Part shown: positions 3,097 through 25,062 of the stretch, one piece after another
How the letters are laid out: the number at the start of each line of letters is the position of its first letter
Numbering within the stretch: the first letter of the stretch is position 1
Virus record (IMG/VR): IMGVR_UViG_2695420421_000005
Origin: a virus
Taxonomy: Duplodnaviria; Heunggongvirae; Uroviricota; Caudoviricetes
Strand: one strand, 5' to 3'
DNA length: 30,231 nucleotides
Position numbers and translations under genes: made by a program
The notes under the pieces: model-generated
Database searches by the model: none
Seen by the model: only the letters and a program-made list of their open reading frames with translations
Told to the model about the DNA's origin: nothing

Positions 3097-3384
3097 TTAC
3101 TGATTAAGAGATTGGAAATACCTAACTAACTTACCGGCATCATCACATTTTTCTTTATCTTCTTCCTTAACATAGCCGCGACAAAAGGCTGAATAAAATT
3201 TTGCATTTTCAGAAGCAAAAGCAGCCGTCGAAAGGAGCAGTTCTTTGCATGATTCTTTTGATGCAGCATCGGGATTATTTTTACATGCAAGCTCTGCTGA
3301 TGAGTCAATAACAGAAATGCTATCTTCCTGGGCATAAACCGCAGCAGAAAAGGCAAAACATAAAACAAAAATAAAACTCTTCAC
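3097..3384 (-). CDS. Small secreted protein (95 aa) with signal peptide and four cysteines
   Basis: N-terminus MKSFIFVLCFAFSAAVYA|QE has a typical signal peptide; AGGAG 5 nt upstream of a GTG start; no family recognised. Confidence 0.6.
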   Translation of the reverse strand: MKSFIFVLCFAFSAAVYAQEDSISVIDSSAELACKNNPDAASKESCKELLLSTAAFASENAKFYSAFCRGYVKEEDKEKCDDAGKLVRYFQSLNQ

Positions 3385-7300: not shown

Positions 7301-8320
7301 CCCTTTTCCTTCTGTGGCTGATTTCCGGTCATTATCCAGTGCGCAGGTGATTTTTGCCGCCGGGTACATGTTTACCAGTTGTTCCACAACATGAACCATG
7401 TTGTTAGCGGATACAGCGACAACCACAGCGTCAAAGCGTTTATCTTTTTTCGTGGCAAGCCAGATGGATGCACCAGTAGCAAAACCTTCTGTAACAGCGA
7501 TGTTTTGCGCCCCTTTCAGCTCACCGATAACAAAGCAGGCACCGACGAAATCGCCGCTGGTTACTGCGCTGGTCTGGTATTTCCCACCTTGTTTGTCGAT
7601 TCGCTGCCAACCCACAATACGACCATCGTAACGACCGTCCAGGTGAGCCAGAGGGATAGCCATATATGTGGTTGGCCCCCGGTTCCATTTCGCACTGTCG
7701 TGACTGGTCACGCGACGCACATCACATGAACTAAAAACGTCACGAATACCTTTTTTAATCGCATATGGCCATGAGCCGTCTTCTGCAGGAGCATGTTCCC
7801 ACGCGCTGTGGAATGCCAGCCATCCCAGCAAACGTTCATGGTCCATTTGGTTGTTTTTCAGGTCATTAATTCGTTTTTGTTCTTCACGGCGACGACGTGC
7901 TTCGGCCTGACGTTTTATTCTTGCCCGTTCTTCTTCCGGTTGTGCGACCACGGTCGCATTATTCCGTTGTTGCTCACGGCGATATTCAGAAAACAGGAAG
8001 GAGAAACCGCTCCATGAGCCAGCATCGCTGCCTTTATGGACGAAGTTAATGAACGGGTAATCAATCCCTTTGCTGTGTTCCAGCCGGGAGTAAATTTCTA
8101 CGCGTCCTTTGAGGCTCTTTTCGAGAGCTTCTGGAGATGTTTTATTGTATGAAGAGTAACGCTCAACACCCCCGCGAGGGTTGAGTTGGATGTTGTCGGA
8201 ACAGGCAGACCAGTTGATACCAGCCATCTGTGCCAGCTCGGTTAGTTCATCCCGTGCTGCTTCAATTAGCGAGAACGGATCGCTGCCAAAGCGATCCGCA
8301 TAGAAATCGTTTAATGTCAT
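4325..8320 (-). CDS. repA: Replication protein RepA (primase-helicase), 1331 aa
   Basis: Size and position match N15 RepA (~1320 aa); Walker A motif GMGSGKST in the helicase region; sits between the telN side and the cB immunity region as in N15. Confidence 0.93.
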   Translation of the reverse strand: MTLNDFYADRFGSDPFSLIEAARDELTELAQMAGINWSACSDNIQLNPRGGVERYSSYNKTSPEALEKSLKGRVEIYSRLEHSKGIDYPFINFVHKGSDAGSWSGFSFLFSEYRREQQRNNATVVAQPEEERARIKRQAEARRRREEQKRINDLKNNQMDHERLLGWLAFHSAWEHAPAEDGSWPYAIKKGIRDVFSSCDVRRVTSHDSAKWNRGPTTYMAIPLAHLDGRYDGRIVGWQRIDKQGGKYQTSAVTSGDFVGACFVIGELKGAQNIAVTEGFATGASIWLATKKDKRFDAVVVAVSANNMVHVVEQLVNMYPAAKITCALDNDRKSATEGKGNTGLRTGYEILSKFNDVRCVYPTFEDDPQMECSDFNDLHKLRGLRETARQLFATANRLKTGTDLLSLTLNRLKTIKRDNRRTFAKELLRAVDIGMLTCPVPNSPSDLFNMFCIVLREMGLENIYRATVKDHIARRLNKKCRIAQAPRSFSERITDPNKRPQHITYKRFETSVMTDDVLKYVQSLQGIVIVRAGMGSGKSTGLLRPLMHSSERGISVAHRVSLIGGLWEMMTEGKGVKADILHYQDPGYQEMAPYASKLTICINSIVKNCWQPLMRQHDYFGFDEATQGLRAVLSGRAMENPVAVFNTLIDALARTEQHPIMVDADANDLLVDLAELAMKRREELGLPAWLQIHVIELPVDVRNRETGEPIRVFYTEKDRIMTEVVKAVSDGEKIMLATDSSTFAEDVTATLRMHFPGKKFLCVNQKNKPEPEVEAFTNQPKKMVKKYDGLIYSPSISSGVSIEQKHFDRHFGMFCGEVVPSDAVQMLRRDRTAKEFIIGFDKARAKRETDPQKIERAFAQALLATAGMNGELTDVIFDGDRISMGVANTDFTRMKIKAAAIEATARNDYASNMICIMHSDGYKVSPLGTDYAANDIGKDLRKEARDIVWEQTLDLHLNTETPQESEREELLKKRALTLEEQAKLVRWDIENELKLPVEEGTLKFYFDGARDKVRRYETMLLDEVTARRYDREEAAINFTYAYRQAGQWQYFVVTAMTREQADDVFKTKFPGIIDHKVKATPTVEVGARGFYALKSATLRQYFIDCGINPETMTGEATQERLKFARDNLMTAERRDLLNNVLHIGGFMTPKGKPKVPEALFKNICDSLGLKTGKRRGRDGDKRPTLRFVEPESAAFMLDILVQRQKDGLTLKTRKAEKTAIEMDRDLDLNIYMDDKTRSTNEQVQNAPHSVISEALAVLPVAVPESWAMSALSGEELATMSSWSSTSIAMTFASLYLTEFMDHLSSNELRRLREYITGNSSCSYEEQGAFYG
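7943..7958. repeat. sopC-like centromere-type inverted repeat TGCGACC-AC-GGTCGCA (copy 1, inside repA coding sequence)
   Basis: 7-bp inverted arms with 2-bp spacer, same architecture as the F sopC core TGGGACC-AC-GGTCCCA; five copies in this window. Confidence 0.5.
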
Positions 8321-14349: not shown

Positions 14350-14637
14350 TCAATAGACGGCATTAATATTAATCGTTGCACCGCATGCTTGGGCATATTT
14401 TGATAAAGTTTTCATGCTTGCCCCTAAAGGATTGCTTTCCAGGCGGCTGATAGCTGACGGGCGCAATCCCATTCGTTCAGCCAGAGCTGACTTCGTTAAA
14501 CCTGCTCTTTCCCTCATTTCGTATAACATTTCGACCATCTCCAGCTCTTTATCGGCCTCTTCATATCCTTTGATGGCTTCTGGAGTGTTGAGAAGTTTTT
14601 CTTTTACTTCGTTAAACGGGATGCCTTTCGCTTTCAT
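14350..14637 (-). CDS. HTH XRE-family antitoxin (HigA-like), 95 aa
   Basis: HTH segment LTKSALAERMGLRPSAISRLE; start overlaps the toxin stop by 1 nt; toxin-first gene order typical of higBA. Confidence 0.85.
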   Translation of the reverse strand: MKAKGIPFNEVKEKLLNTPEAIKGYEEADKELEMVEMLYEMRERAGLTKSALAERMGLRPSAISRLESNPLGASMKTLSKYAQACGATININAVY

Positions 14638-14948
14638 CAGTTCATCTCCTTCAGGCGAGTTCTGGCGATTTCGATAGCCTTCACCGGTGTTTTCTGTGTC
14701 TTTTTTACAAATGCATGCAATAGATAAATTTCGTTACCAGTCGCGTAGGCGTACAGCGTTCTTGCGATGTTTTTATCCCCTACTCGTAGTTCAAAAAGCC
14801 CTCCACCTATTACACGGCTATGGGGCATCTTCAGTTTGTTGCCTTCTTTCTCCAGTCGCTCAATTAATCTGGTCATGCGACCTCGCAAATCATCTGGTAG
14901 TTCAAGCAGTTCATCCAGTGCTGCAGGGTGGGTTATCACGTTAAACAT
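14637..14948 (-). CDS. RelE/ParE-superfamily toxin (HigB/Gp49-like), 103 aa
   Basis: Conserved IGGGLFELRVGDKNIARTLYAY core typical of HigB/Gp49-like toxins; GGAGG 9 nt upstream of ATG. Confidence 0.85.
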   Translation of the reverse strand: MFNVITHPAALDELLELPDDLRGRMTRLIERLEKEGNKLKMPHSRVIGGGLFELRVGDKNIARTLYAYATGNEIYLLHAFVKKTQKTPVKAIEIARTRLKEMN

Positions 14949-17288: not shown

Positions 17289-17785
17289 TGCAGTCATCAT
17301 TACGCAAAGCTGTCACAGCTGCTATTGGTGGCGGGGCTATTGCCATAGCGTCTATGCTCATCACTGGCCCAAGTGGTAACGATGGTCTGGAAGGTGTCAG
17401 TTACATACCATACAAAGATATTGTTGGCGTATGGACTGTATGTTACGGACACACTGGAAAAGACATCATGCTAGGTAAAACGTATACCGAAGCAGAATGC
17501 AAAGCTCTCCTGAATAAAGACCTTGCCACTGTCGCCAGACAAATTAACCCGTACATCAAAGTCGATATACCGGAAACAACGCGCGGCGCTCTTTACTCGT
17601 TCGTTTACAACGTGGGCGCTGGTAATTTCAGAACATCGACGCTTCTTCGCAAAATAAACCAGGGCGATATCAAAGGCGCATGTGATCAGCTACGTCGCTG
17701 GATATCTGCTGGCGGTAAGCAATGGAAAGGCCTGATGACTCGTCGTGAGATTGAGCGTGAAGTCTGTTTGTGGGGTCAACAATGA
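17285..17785 (+). CDS. R: SAR endolysin (phage 21 R21-like lysozyme with N-terminal signal-arrest-release domain), 166 aa
   Basis: N-terminal weakly hydrophobic Gly/Ala-rich SAR segment [18 protein letters not shown] and close resemblance to phage 21 R as I recall it. Confidence 0.9.
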
Positions 17786-18219
17786 GCAGGGTAACCGCGA
17801 TTATCTCCGCTCTGGTTATTTGCATCATCGTCTGCCTGTCGTGGGCTGTTAATCATTACCGTGATAACGCCATCGCCTACAAAGAGCAGCGCGATAAAGC
17901 CACATCCACAATCGCTGATATGCAGAAGCGTCAACGTGACGTAGCAGAACTCGATGCCAGATATACAAAGGAGCTTGCTGATGCTAACGCGACTATCGAA
18001 AGCCTCCGTGCTGATGTTTCTGCTGGGCGTAAGCGCCTGCAAGTCGCCGCCACCTGTGCAAAGTCAACGACCGGAGCCAGCGGCATGGGCAATGGAGAAA
18101 GCCCAAGACTTACAGCAGATGCTGAACTCAATTATTACCGTCTCCGAAGTGGGATCGACAGGATAACTGCGCAGGTTAACTACTTGCAGGAATACATCAA
18201 GACGCAATGCCTGAATTAA
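17782..18219 (+). CDS. Rz: i-spanin Rz (145 aa)
   Basis: N-terminus [31 protein letters not shown] as in lambda Rz; ATGA overlap with the endolysin gene. Confidence 0.9.
17981..18166 (+). CDS. Rz1: o-spanin Rz1 lipoprotein embedded in Rz (+1 frame), ~61 aa
   Basis: Signal peptide with lipobox-like ...LLGVSAC, proline-rich mature region; AAGGAG 7 nt upstream of ATG 17981 (the ORF track also allows 17954). Confidence 0.75.
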
Positions 18220-18260
18220 TCCCTCTGTATCAAAAACGAGCTCAATTTGTTGGATAGTGA

Positions 18261-18572
18261 ATGAAAATTTATATTGCCGGGCCAATGACGGGATATGAGA
18301 ACTTTAATCGTGACGCCTTTAATAAAGAGGCAGATCGTTTGTCACGACATGGTCACTCTGTCTTGAATCCAGCCACTTTGCCTAATGGTCTGACACAACG
18401 TGAATACATGGATATTTGCTTTGCAATGCTTCGTTGTGCTGATGCTATTTTGATGCTTCCTGGCTGGAAAGCGTCTGCTGGAGCAACTGCTGAGTATCAT
18501 TACGCATACAAGATGGAGATGCCGGTATTCACTACGCTGAATTACCCGCCAGCTTGTTCCTCTGTAGCATAA
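18261..18572 (+). CDS. DUF4406-like protein (nucleoside 2-deoxyribosyltransferase-like fold), 103 aa
   Basis: N-terminus MKIYIAGPMTGYENFNRDAF typical of DUF4406 proteins found near phage lysis genes. Confidence 0.65.
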   Translation: MKIYIAGPMTGYENFNRDAFNKEADRLSRHGHSVLNPATLPNGLTQREYMDICFAMLRCADAILMLPGWKASAGATAEYHYAYKMEMPVFTTLNYPPACSSVA

Positions 18573-18592
18573 AAATCTCTTTGTTTCTCGTT

Positions 18593-18608
18593 TGCGACCG
18601 TGGTCGCA
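18593..18608. repeat. sopC-like inverted repeat TGCGACC-GT-GGTCGCA (copy 4)
   Basis: Same motif, immediately left of direct repeat A. Confidence 0.5.
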
Positions 18609-18619
18609 CATTAAATACC

Positions 18620-18795
18620 GCGCTGCATCGTCGCCGTATTTCCGCATTAACCATGACCGTAGCCCGACGGGGAACTCCTCTGCGCGAGTGTGCGGAAATA
18701 ATCAAAAACGATGCACACCGGGTTTTTACCGCGCTAATGATTCGCGGGTTTGTCCCTCATGCTCGCCAGTCCTGTGCGAGGGTGGAAGAAACAGG
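18620..18795 (+). repeat. Direct repeat A (~176 bp), ~90% identical to repeat B at 20405-20581
   Basis: Aligned by eye: long identical blocks (GAGTGTGCGG.AATAATCAAAAACGATGCACACCGGGTTTTTACCGCG; CCCTCATGCTCGCCAGTCCTGTGCGAGGGTGGAAGAAAC) with a short variable segment near the 5' end. Confidence 0.75.
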
Positions 18796-18812
18796 GCATG
18801 TATTCAGGAGCG

Positions 18813-18828
18813 TGCGACCGTGGTCGCA
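18813..18828. repeat. sopC-like inverted repeat TGCGACC-GT-GGTCGCA (copy 5)
   Basis: Same motif, immediately right of direct repeat A and 25 bp upstream of the gene X start. Confidence 0.5.
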
Positions 18829-18852
18829 CGGTATCTTTGTCAGGAGGTTTTG

Positions 18853-19713
18853 ATGAAAGAGTTGCAAAAAATTAATTCAATAATGGAAAGGTTAAGTGCT
18901 CTTGAGCGTAAGCTGGACGATTGTGGAAAGCTGTGTGTTGAAAAGCAAAATGAGCTTTACCGGGAATTTTTTACAATCGTAAGTGAGCTGATGCCAATTG
19001 TTAATAACTGCCTGATGACATCCAGATTTTTTAATGTCGATGCTACTACATCCAGAAAATTTTCTGTGAAAATTCAAGAAAGAGTTTCTGGTAGTGTGAC
19101 AAGAGAGATGGCTGAACAGTTGGTGGCAATGAGCAATAAAACAAAAAGAAAAAAGGCATTGCTTGTAACAGCAAATCAGCTTTCAGGGCGCGTTGACTTT
19201 CAGGTCAGACAGGGTGGGCGTGTACTGGTAAATGATGCGTTCGTTGGACGTAGCTTTAGTCCTTACTCGATGAAATATGATGTTGATGCAGATGATCAGG
19301 ATATCAGCATTTCCTGGAAATCTGAGACAGCAGGGATTGTATTAACAGCAGAGTTGTTGAATGATGATAAAAATGATGTCCAGCATCATTTGGACGAAAA
19401 GAATCATATTTCTGAAATTTGTATGAAGCCACGCAGCGGAATGACTTTATTGTCACGCACTCTTGCTGCTGGCTTTTCTGCACCGGAAAAACGTGTGCTT
19501 CTGGTAGTGCCTGAAGATGCAGATATTCGACCACTGAATGGCTGTGATGTTATTAGTGCAAAAACATTGCATACCCGCGTCATTCCTGTACCGGATGTGG
19601 TCATTATTGATGATGTTGAGAAATGCAAGTCTGTTTCCTCAACTGCCACAATCAAGCGAATTTTACGTTGTAGCACGTCGGCTGTTGTATTCCGGAAGCA
19701 GTTACATAACTAA
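18853..19713 (+). CDS. Hypothetical protein X (286 aa), AT-rich gene of unknown function
   Basis: AGGAGG 6 nt upstream of ATG 18853; the ORF-track N-terminal extension from 18592 runs through the repeat and palindromes and is rejected; no motif recognised. Confidence 0.75.
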   Translation: MKELQKINSIMERLSALERKLDDCGKLCVEKQNELYREFFTIVSELMPIVNNCLMTSRFFNVDATTSRKFSVKIQERVSGSVTREMAEQLVAMSNKTKRKKALLVTANQLSGRVDFQVRQGGRVLVNDAFVGRSFSPYSMKYDVDADDQDISISWKSETAGIVLTAELLNDDKNDVQHHLDEKNHISEICMKPRSGMTLLSRTLAAGFSAPEKRVLLVVPEDADIRPLNGCDVISAKTLHTRVIPVPDVVIIDDVEKCKSVSSTATIKRILRCSTSAVVFRKQLHN

Positions 19714-19838
19714 CCAGTTTTGTTTTGCAGAACATCCTCAACTAAAAGCTTATAGAAAGAGAGCCTGAGATATTTTTTCTGTCTCTCGTAGTTGTTTGTT
19801 TTTTTTTCGAACAGACTTACAACTTACAGGATATAAAC

Positions 19839-20288
19839 ATGCAAGAAGAAGCAAATAAAATTCTTGTTGATTTATTGAAGAAGGCCAGCGATGGAATTGA
19901 TTCCGCCATTGTATTCAGTCAGGCTCAAATTCCGGATGTTGTTCATCAGTTGCTGGTATGGAATATGGTTGATAGCCTGATTAAAACATTAATAGCCATT
20001 TCAACAATTCCGCTGGTTATTTGGTTTATGAAGAAACAGTGCAAAAAAGTTGAAATTGGTAAGTTCGATAATGAAGGACGCTCATGCGATAATGGACAGC
20101 CTAAATACAAACCAACTATGCTTTGGGAAAGTGACGGTAGGTTAAGTGGTTTTGTCTTACCATTAGTAGCAGTTTTTATTCTATGGTTCAGTTTTATTAT
20201 TTCTGTAGTAGCCAATATGACATGGTTAAAAATTTGGCTGGCACCTAAGTTATATCTAATCGAATACGCAGCATCACTAATTAAATAG
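19839..20288 (+). CDS. Hypothetical two-TM membrane protein Y (149 aa)
   Basis: Two hydrophobic helices (LIKTLIAISTIPLVIWFM; GFVLPLVAVFILWFSFIISVV); AT-rich; preceded by a hairpin plus T9 run after gene X. Confidence 0.7.
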   Translation: MQEEANKILVDLLKKASDGIDSAIVFSQAQIPDVVHQLLVWNMVDSLIKTLIAISTIPLVIWFMKKQCKKVEIGKFDNEGRSCDNGQPKYKPTMLWESDGRLSGFVLPLVAVFILWFSFIISVVANMTWLKIWLAPKLYLIEYAASLIK

Positions 20289-20345
20289 TCCATTACAAAA
20301 GCCATTCGCTACTGAGTGGCTTTGATAATGGCTTATACCCTACAC

Positions 20346-20372
20346 GGGATAACTTAACTGATATCCCTTTTA
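20346..20372 (+). terminator. Possible terminator after gene Y
   Basis: GGGATA-N10-TATCCC hairpin followed by TTTT. Confidence 0.4.
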
Positions 20373-20404
20373 ACGGATAAAGGTATTCAAGCCTGACACA
20401 TCAT

Positions 20405-20581
20405 GCGCTGTATCGTCGCCGTATTCCCGTCTTAACAGAGACCGTAGCCCGACGGGGAACTCTTTCTGCGCGAGTGTGCGGGAATAATCAAAAACGATGC
20501 ACACCGGGTTTTTACCGCGTTTATGGTTCGCGGGTTTGCCCCTCATGCTCGCCAGTCCTGTGCGAGGGTGGAAGAAACCGG
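20405..20581 (+). repeat. Direct repeat B (~177 bp), partner of repeat A
   Basis: See repeat A; lies between gene Y and the cos site. Confidence 0.75.
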
Positions 20582-20639
20582 ATATTAATGCAAGTGATAA
20601 ACATTCTCATTTTCTCGGGTCCTTTCCGGCGATCTGACA

Positions 20640-20835
20640 GGCTACGGGGCGGAAGGCGCGCGGGTTTTCGCTATTTATGAAAATTTTCCGGTTTAAGGCG
20701 TTTCCGTTCTTCTTCTCCGTAACTTCATGTTTTTATTTAAAACACCCACTGAAAAGAAAGGAAACGACAGATGCTGAAAACGGGCTTTTTGGCCTTTGTC
20801 GTTTCCTTTCTCTGTTTTTGTCCGTGGAATGAACA
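20640..20835. other. Lambda-type cos site (cosN with flanking cosQ/cosB-like sequence) upstream of Nu1
   Basis: ...CTACG|GGGCGGAAGGCG|CGCGGGTTTTCGCTATTTATGAAAATTTTCCGGTTTAAGGCGTTTCCGTTCTTCTTC... matches my recollection of the lambda genome ends except 6 nt inside the 12-nt cohesive-end position (20647-20658). Confidence 0.8.
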
Positions 20836-21355
20836 ATGGAAGTCAACAAAAAGCAGCTGGCTGATATTTTCGGTGCGAGTATCCGTACCATTCAGAACTG
20901 GCAGGAGCAGGGAATGCCCGTTTTGCGAGGCGGTGGCAAGGGTAATGAGGTGCTTTATGATTCTGCCGCCGTCATAAAATGGTATGCCGAAAGGGATGCT
21001 GAAATTGAGAACGAAAAGCTGCGCCGGGAGGTTGAAGAACTGCGGCTGGCCAGCGAGGCAGATCTTCACCCCGGAACACTTGAATTTGAGCGCCATCGCC
21101 TGACTCGTGCTCAGGCGACGGCGCAGGAACTGAAAAATGCCAAAGAATCGGCTGAAGTGGTGGAAACCGCATTCTGTACTTTCGTGCTGTCGCGTATAGC
21201 AAGGGAAATATCCAGTATTCTCGACGGTATTCCTCTGTCGGTGCAGCGACGTTTTCCTGAGCTGGATAACCGGCATATTGATTTCCTGAAACGGGATATC
21301 ATCAAAGCCATGAACAAAGCAGCCGCGCTGGATGAACTGATACCGGGGTTGCTGA

Positions 21356-21381
<26 letters not shown>
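20836..21381 (+). CDS. nu1: Terminase small subunit Nu1 (lambda-like), 181 aa
   Basis: Near-identical to lambda Nu1 (MEVNKKQLADIFGASIRTIQNWQEQGMPVLRGGGKGNEVLYDSAAVIKWYAERDAEIENEKLRREVEELR...). Confidence 0.95.

Positions 21382-25062
<3,681 letters not shown>

Follow-up and report, generated by a model that had tools for sequence, protein, structure and literature searches.

A candidate structured RNA of lambdoid phages brackets accessory genes between Rz and cos in an N15-like plasmid-prophage

The interval between the lysis genes and cos was analyzed in a 30,231-nucleotide (nt) stretch of viral DNA (IMG/VR record IMGVR_UViG_2695420421_000005; hereafter the window), which forms the left portion of a linear plasmid-prophage of the N15 type. 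A preliminary description of positions 18593–20581 had proposed an AT-rich cassette of two genes, X and Y, bracketed by direct repeats and possibly encoding an abortive-infection or superinfection-exclusion system. The most interesting object of the interval is instead the pair of repeats, as copies of a widespread covarying RNA, rather than X-Y. The features of the interval, in window coordinates, are:

18593–18608, strand not assigned: putative N15-type SopB centromere site, the inverted-repeat (IR) palindrome TGCGACCGTGGTCGCA, left of repeat A
18620–18797, + strand: copy A of the ~180-nt candidate RNA element (covariance model R1, 221 bits over 18615–18811), the resident copy of the N15-like lineage
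18813–18828, strand not assigned: second putative N15-type SopB centromere site, an exact copy of the first, 24 nt upstream of the X start codon and part of the inserted segment
18853–19713, + strand: gene X, 286 amino acids, phrog_2571, a family without assigned function
19839–20288, + strand: gene Y, 149 amino acids, phrog_3054, also a family without assigned function
20290–20404, + strand: canonical lambdoid post-lysis block with two hairpins, directly after the Y stop codon, a left flank kept in most of 67 copies
20405–20583, + strand: copy B of the candidate RNA element (R1, 218 bits over 20400–20597), of the common lambdoid lineage

Copies A and B align as 128 nt at 91% and 58 nt at 88% identity with a 1-nt indel between them (91.5% by BLAST). 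A repeat of such length and identity cannot be chance, and the earlier estimate of ~176-bp direct repeats ~90% identical held up well, at ~178 nt and about 91%. Base pairing was evaluated in two alignments. The first (A5) is a MAFFT alignment of 42 non-redundant element copies and was not fitted to a model, whereas the second (A6) is model-fitted, adds the lambda, DLP12, Salmonella and Intestinirhabdus copies, and leans towards its model. Eight helices were supported in A5, including a 3′ H-type pseudoknot. Standard pairs made up 95.5% of cells, compared to 31–59% when the partners were slid by 1–3 columns. Changes on both sides were seen for 17 of the 45 pairs, and none of 500 column shuffles (0/500) reached the observed values. 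In A6, 22/45 pairs showed compensatory change on both sides. The first pseudoknot stem varies from CUCGC/GCGAG to GCCAG/CUGGC and GCCGC/GCGGU. G-U combinations occupied 255 cells versus 17 for A-C, and pairing reached 95.5% on the + strand versus 82.5% on the − strand. The excess of G-U over A-C points to folding of the + strand, which has the same sense as late transcription.

Two features of these alignments weigh against the RNA reading: the covariation set consists of related phages, so the shuffle statistics overstate independence, and the covariation in A6 is fitted to its model. The slid controls and the strand asymmetry are free of the relatedness problem. On this comparative evidence the repeats are predicted to be a ~180-nt structured RNA with eight helices and a pseudoknot, read on the late-transcript strand. 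Neither copy matched Rfam 15 at gathering thresholds or at E ≤ 10, and literature searches by sequence string and keyword found no description of the element. It is a strongly conserved, strongly covarying RNA of lambda-like phages, lambda included, outside Rfam 15.

A 188-nt query from copy B gave matches in 433 phage records, including phages carrying Shiga toxin (Stx) types 1 and 2; lambda was matched by the 5′ half. Full-length diverged copies in lambda (111 bits) and in the K-12 prophage DLP12 (117 bits), both unannotated, were found with a covariance model built from A5. The lambda copy lies between bor and a ybcV-like gene (L135 1997–2180, equivalent to lambda imm434 OM418626.1 45688–45871), and the DLP12 copy is in the borD-ybcV intergenic region (L011 5006–5190, equivalent to NC_000913.3 579005–579189). 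The element was present in 4634/5426 complete Escherichia coli genomes (~85%), at a median of 2 places per genome and a maximum of 11, and was mostly unannotated. A scan of species-representative genomes for a conserved 24-nt pattern returned Escherichia species and Intestinirhabdus, together with a handful of small contigs from metagenome bins whose assigned taxa are unrelated.

The lysis module always precedes the element, which comes after Rz or next to bor, and the packaging module always lies further on. The element is followed by a small terminase gene 84–111 nt away (Stx2-type and Salmonella phages), by cos (lambda-like and N15-like phages) or by other genes, and no constant downstream gene that could serve as a regulatory target was found among these contexts. 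In almost all other phages it is single-copy, with unrelated flanks. The repeats are thus copies of a widespread structured RNA, as far as sequence comparison can tell, and normally occur singly; their proposed status as cassette boundaries did not survive. Helix P5 of copy B (20563–20567 with 20582–20587) contains a U-C mismatch, UCCUGU against ACCGGA, shared with the L029/L039 lineage, whereas other lineages have matched combinations (UCCUGU/ACAGGA or UCCGGU/ACCGGA). The mismatch may reflect a past crossover within the element.

The bracketing of cargo by direct repeats could also suggest the ends of a mobile cassette, either a target- or attachment-site duplication or a miniature transposable element. 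The single-copy occurrence of the element elsewhere and the lack of any integrase or transposase argue against this. Small-protein genes are the other identity to be weighed: a 58-amino-acid minus-strand open reading frame (ORF) over copy B is annotated in the closely related phage PhiR46_1, and YlcI/YnfO genes lie in a similar region of K-12 prophages. However, the 1-nt indel between copies A and B breaks this ORF, Stx2-type copies carry a 10-nt deletion, and the ORFs are unlike DUF3950 or YlcI. A conserved ORF in the element is excluded by these frame-breaking indels together with the lack of any resemblance to DUF3950. In both copies, the minus-strand ORFs matched 0 families, compared to ~1e-20 for K-12 YlcI and YnfO against DUF3950 (PF13132). 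BLASTP gave no alignment, and in the covariance-model search the true DLP12 copy fell between borD and ybcV rather than at ylcI. Compensatory changes and the G-U asymmetry indicate selection on RNA structure, contrary to both mobile ends and a small gene, and we regard these identities as very improbable. The known prophage small RNAs AgvB, AsxR, Esr41, STnc100 and Pas were also considered and rejected. All of them are encoded upstream of the lysis genes, and the four with Rfam families (AgvB, AsxR, Esr41 and STnc100) had no match on the window.

The guanine-cytosine content is 38.5% in the cassette but 48.0% over the window as a whole, 48.8% in the lysis genes and 53.6% in Nu1-A, in agreement with the AT-richness described previously. 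The preliminary description had also placed it in an Rz-to-cos hotspot and advised comparing that interval across relatives. This comparison supported an accessory insertion, absent from the sibling viral contig L029 at exactly that site. L029 aligns continuously with window positions 17782–18795 (98.4%, copy A included) and then with 20405–21500 (94.5%). Its empty site, without X-Y, consists of the DUF4406 gene, the first IR site, a single repeat and cos. Lambdoid homology to the post-lysis block starts at 20283–20290, i.e. at the Y stop codon. Approximately 260 loci were sampled for repeat copy number and cassette content, and two full-length repeat copies were found only with X-Y or in the deletion derivatives L082 and L120; L240 has one full and one partial copy. 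Partial forms of the cassette were also seen: in L022 a clean deletion has removed X but left a degenerate IR site upstream of Y, and L026 retains 36 codons of the X N-terminus along with the element and a perfect IR site.

Because of the L029 empty site, the homology breakpoints and the copy numbers in relatives, the inserted segment was placed at ~18796–20582 (~1.8 kb) with its own repeat copy. Its contents are a SopB centromere site, X, Y, the terminator-like block and one copy of the RNA element. The repeat would have been duplicated when lambdoid genomes recombined at the conserved element or close to it, so that the incoming cargo brought a copy of its own. Terminator-like structures had been attributed to both genes. 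Hairpins do follow Y at 20298–20323 and 20346–20367, the latter then TTTT, and the stretch homologous to 20290–20404 is annotated 'terminator' in phage Ayreon, but neither hairpin was flagged in a consensus terminator scan of the interval. The segment resembles a moron in base composition and in presence or absence among relatives; a promoter of its own was not found above chance in the interval scan. Two further variants of the interval were observed, ~0.9 kb of additional DNA that separates Y from the terminator-like block in L086 (4614–5530) and an IS5-like element in some E. coli genomes.

Four IR sites (IR1–IR4), dispersed over the linear plasmid prophage, have been described in N15. In the 30-kb window, five exact copies of TGCGACCGTGGTCGCA were found versus 0.22 expected. 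The copies at 18593 and 18813 flank repeat A, and further exact copies lie at 7943, 10386 and 15583. Among N15 centromere oligonucleotides, the core of IR1 and IR4 is GTGCGACCACGGTCGCAC (PMC7205306 Table 4). TGCGACCGTGGTCGCA is the reverse complement of this core, and for this reason the palindromes are assigned, by sequence identity, as N15 IR-type SopB-binding centromere sites. The 'sopC-like palindromes' noted earlier on either side of repeat A can thus be named more precisely as IR1/IR4-type. ParA and ParB are annotated in PhiR46_1, and the sop genes lie outside the window. The site at 18813 has no counterpart at the L029 empty site; L026 has a perfect copy beside its X remnant, and in L022 a degenerate copy precedes Y. 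Its location directly upstream of X suggests a tie between plasmid partition proteins and the control of cargo genes in phage-plasmids.

Genes X and Y are both intact ORFs of the lengths given at the outset. X starts at the ATG at 18853, inside a listed ORF (18592–19713), with AGGAGG at 18842–18847, five bases upstream. It has no hydrophobic segments by hydropathy and is a soluble protein. Ratios of nonsynonymous to synonymous substitution rates (dN/dS) were 0.25–0.29 for X and 0.19–0.51 for Y, and both genes are under purifying selection. X is predicted to begin with a coiled-coil hairpin, to continue with a beta-rich domain and to end in a small alpha/beta domain; its AlphaFold2 model had a predicted local distance difference test (pLDDT) score of 53, and structure models were uninformative. 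Neither X nor Y gave a match in Pfam (E ≤ 1, including the SieB and holin models for Y), NCBIfam, PADLOC-DB v2.0 (E ≤ 1) or solved structures. The profile and structure searches that had been recommended thus returned phrog_2571 and phrog_3054 only, consistent with the earlier statement that X has no recognizable motif and that functions are unassigned.

Full-length relatives of X are confined to Escherichia/Shigella, at ≥80% identity. A whole-library HMMER search with X recovered fragments plus just two weak homologs of residues 101–209 (P0143 and P0144). P0143 (L270 5826–6371) sits between Q and the holin gene of another prophage. In this protein, the beta-domain precedes a segment like the N-terminal coiled coil of X, an arrangement that suggests domain shuffling or permutation. 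A third beta-domain homolog (L022 1338–1607, 46% identity) is located after Rz and upstream of Y. X is therefore best described as an orphan of Escherichia/Shigella whose core is a beta-domain shared with small cargo proteins elsewhere in late operons. A profile search of the Protein Data Bank (PDB) aligned X residues 187–249 with the cystovirus P4 packaging NTPase at E~0.3 only, which is not evidence of relatedness. The 'PRSGMT ... VVIIDDVE' pattern in X, taken with this match, is likewise a weak lead to a degenerate P-loop fragment and not evidence.

Y has hydrophobic segments at residues 46–64 and 106–124 by hydropathy and is predicted from its sequence to be a membrane protein with two hydrophobic helices, as described before, belonging to a widespread phage family. 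Its AlphaFold2 model (pLDDT 68) was uninformative. Homologs of Y number 490 across Enterobacteriaceae. At 69–72% identity they occur in the pL operon of P22-like prophages just downstream of N, beside sieB in Salmonella, and without X. In a Klebsiella prophage Y follows a KilA-N gene between lysis and terminase genes, also without X. Full-length relatives at 26–47% identity were found by tblastn in 178 phage records. The virulent phages among them include an N4-like Ithacavirus, whose copy neighbors the gene of an RNA polymerase subunit, Justusliebigvirus and Vibrio phages, the last in large number; a Ralstonia jumbo phage also has a relative. Y is thus a widely shared phage membrane protein, common to temperate and virulent phages.

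The small size of Y, its two transmembrane segments and its location downstream of holin, endolysin and Rz would fit a lysis-module accessory (holin, antiholin or lysis-timing regulator), with X-Y extending the lysis cassette. Its placement between lysis genes and terminase in the Klebsiella prophage points the same way. This role is improbable given the early pL position next to N/sieB in P22-like prophages, the early-operon position beside the RNA polymerase subunit gene in the N4-like phage, and the lack of a holin family match where the window's own holin matches weakly. Judged by genomic context, Y would act at the inner membrane during lytic growth, with superinfection exclusion or envelope/lysis modulation as the likeliest class of function.

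A dedicated X-Y system for abortive infection or superinfection exclusion, in which a soluble sensor and a membrane effector would be expressed from the plasmid-prophage to protect the lysogen as in RexAB, was considered next to these distributions. X and Y occur together in 8 full loci and in many 46–47-kb E. coli/Shigella sonnei replicons, in an AT-rich segment at the Rz-cos cargo hotspot. Purifying selection on both genes and the beta-domain homolog upstream of Y in L022 are also in line with a pair. Neither homology to lysis or structural proteins nor status as a conserved core gene, the two outcomes named in the preliminary description as speaking against such a system, was found for X-Y. 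However, P22-like prophages, a Klebsiella prophage and virulent phages carry Y alone, and several relatives have lost X or part of it while retaining Y or the flanks. Matches to PADLOC, Pfam or NCBIfam families were lacking, including the RexA (PF15969), RexB (PF15968) and SieB models. Expression of X-Y independent of the late operon was not supported either: both genes point the same way as the late operon, and the interval has no more promoter-like sites than chance would give (five versus 5.4 expected, none well placed). A dedicated system of this kind is therefore unlikely. Y, an independently distributed single gene present without X in several phage groups, and X appear from these comparisons to be separate evolutionary units. 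The contrast between a widely shared Y and an orphan X argues against assuming a two-gene defense system.

X and Y would be expressed in the Q-dependent late transcript, not from the quiescent prophage, and SopB spreading from the adjacent sites may dampen their expression further. For the RNA, a cis role is favored on genomic position: it would govern processing, stability or translation of the late polycistronic mRNA where the lysis genes give way to the packaging genes. The main alternative is a processed RNA that acts in trans.

Taking these lines together, we consider it probable that accessory DNA of mosaic make-up was inserted at this interval into the late operon of a linear, N15-like plasmid-prophage, and that the repeats are RNA copies, X and Y are separate units and the inferred steps proceeded as outlined. 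Several considerations weigh against this. The crude consensus match used in the promoter scan could miss a real lysogenic promoter in AT-rich DNA. Although Y is found without X and co-occurrence is thus not obligate, intact X was never seen without Y among the sampled loci, and in L022 an X beta-domain homolog again precedes Y; a functional X-Y link is possible for these two reasons. The roles proposed for Y, X and the RNA are drawn from genomic context only.

A broader proposal is held with slightly more doubt than conviction. The element may represent an undescribed functional RNA class of lambdoid phages (lambda, DLP12, Stx phages and ~85% of complete E. coli genomes) that controls late expression at the lysis-packaging junction or is processed to a trans-acting RNA, and that, through its conserved sequence, would be a preferred crossover for cargo. 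X-Y could in addition be a new late-expressed, SopB-silenced, envelope-level exclusion module. If the RNA is functional, the best-studied phage family harbors an unrecognized large structured RNA at its lysis/packaging boundary, one that spans most E. coli genomes and Shiga-toxin phages. It would also raise the question of how late polycistronic transcripts are organized and why this junction is a cargo hotspot.

The replicon type and the neighborhood of the interval are indicated by these features:

213–2120: TelK-type protelomerase, evidence of the replicon type
17770–18219: Rz, the left landmark of the Rz-cos interval
18261–18572, + strand: DUF4406 (nucleoside 2-deoxyribosyltransferase-like) gene, Pfam PF14359, E = 3.7e-34
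20647–20658, strand not assigned: cosN-like cohesive end GGGCGGAAGGCG, read from the sequence; Nu1 then starts at 20836

A 1331-amino-acid Toprim/origin-binding replication protein, a CI-like repressor and Q are also encoded in the window. The late region runs in the order methylase, holin, endolysin, Rz, DUF4406 gene, X, Y, cos, then lambda-like Nu1/A and head genes. GGGCGGAAGGCG is presumably cosN, an assignment made by comparison with the lambda cos sequence, GGGCGGCGACCT. PhiR46_1 is 96.8% identical over window positions 18200–20900 and has a 46.3-kb linear genome with telL/telR and ParA/ParB annotated. Approximately 25 E. coli replicons, many of them 46–47 kb in size, are 97–99.7% identical to the same stretch. 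The DUF4406 gene directly follows Rz and is the left neighbor of the insertion site; it is also present in L029, which lacks the cassette, and is contiguous with repeat A there. It is another small late-operon accessory gene, and its protein matched 0 PADLOC-DB v2.0 families at E ≤ 1. Rfam matches placed a C4 antisense RNA (73.6 bits) at 2774–2860 (−), adjoining isrK (62.8 bits) at 2886–2959 (−); their location beside the protelomerase gene fits an N15/P1-type RNA-controlled anti-immunity region. Neighboring Gp49/DUF891 (HigB-like) and HTH_3 genes at 14350–14948 (−), upstream of the late region, look like a toxin-antitoxin pair. The PhiR46_1 counterpart of the ORF at 3097–3384 (−) bears the record label 'Spackle exclusion protein' (putative).

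Known systems resemble parts of this arrangement. Lambdoid morons are additional late-operon genes, such as lambda bor and lom, or stx downstream of pR′, according to the statement in PMC4104026 that cites Juhala et al. 2000. The insertion shares with them a permissive late-operon site, presence or absence among close relatives, AT-richness and a hairpin after the cargo. In contrast to morons, X-Y lacks a promoter above chance, is bracketed by a duplicated, putatively structured RNA and carries a plasmid centromere site. Lambda RexA/RexB and similar pairs likewise comprise a soluble and then a small inner-membrane protein of a temperate phage. They differ in that no sequence or profile similarity was found, Y is mostly alone, and the X-Y orientation with no promoter detected points to late lytic rather than lysogenic expression. 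P22 SieA/SieB and T4 Imm/Sp are, like Y, small phage inner-membrane proteins from temperate and virulent phages, and Y lies beside sieB in P22-like prophages; however, Y has no SieB match in Pfam or PADLOC, and SieA, Imm and Sp are likened by description only.

The HK022 put antiterminator RNAs and the lambda sib RNase III retroregulator are, as the element is predicted to be, structured RNAs in a long phage transcript, conserved by covariation and sited at a module boundary. The element is much larger (~180 nt, eight helices, one pseudoknot), has another sequence, follows the lysis genes and belongs to no Rfam 15 family. The palindromes resemble N15 IR1–IR4, with a core identical to IR1/IR4, dispersed copies (five in 30 kb) and a near-identical phage that encodes ParA/ParB. 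Here, in contrast to N15, two of the putative sites flank a copy of the RNA element, and one travels with the X-Y cargo, also into other phage backgrounds (L026, and in degenerate form L022).

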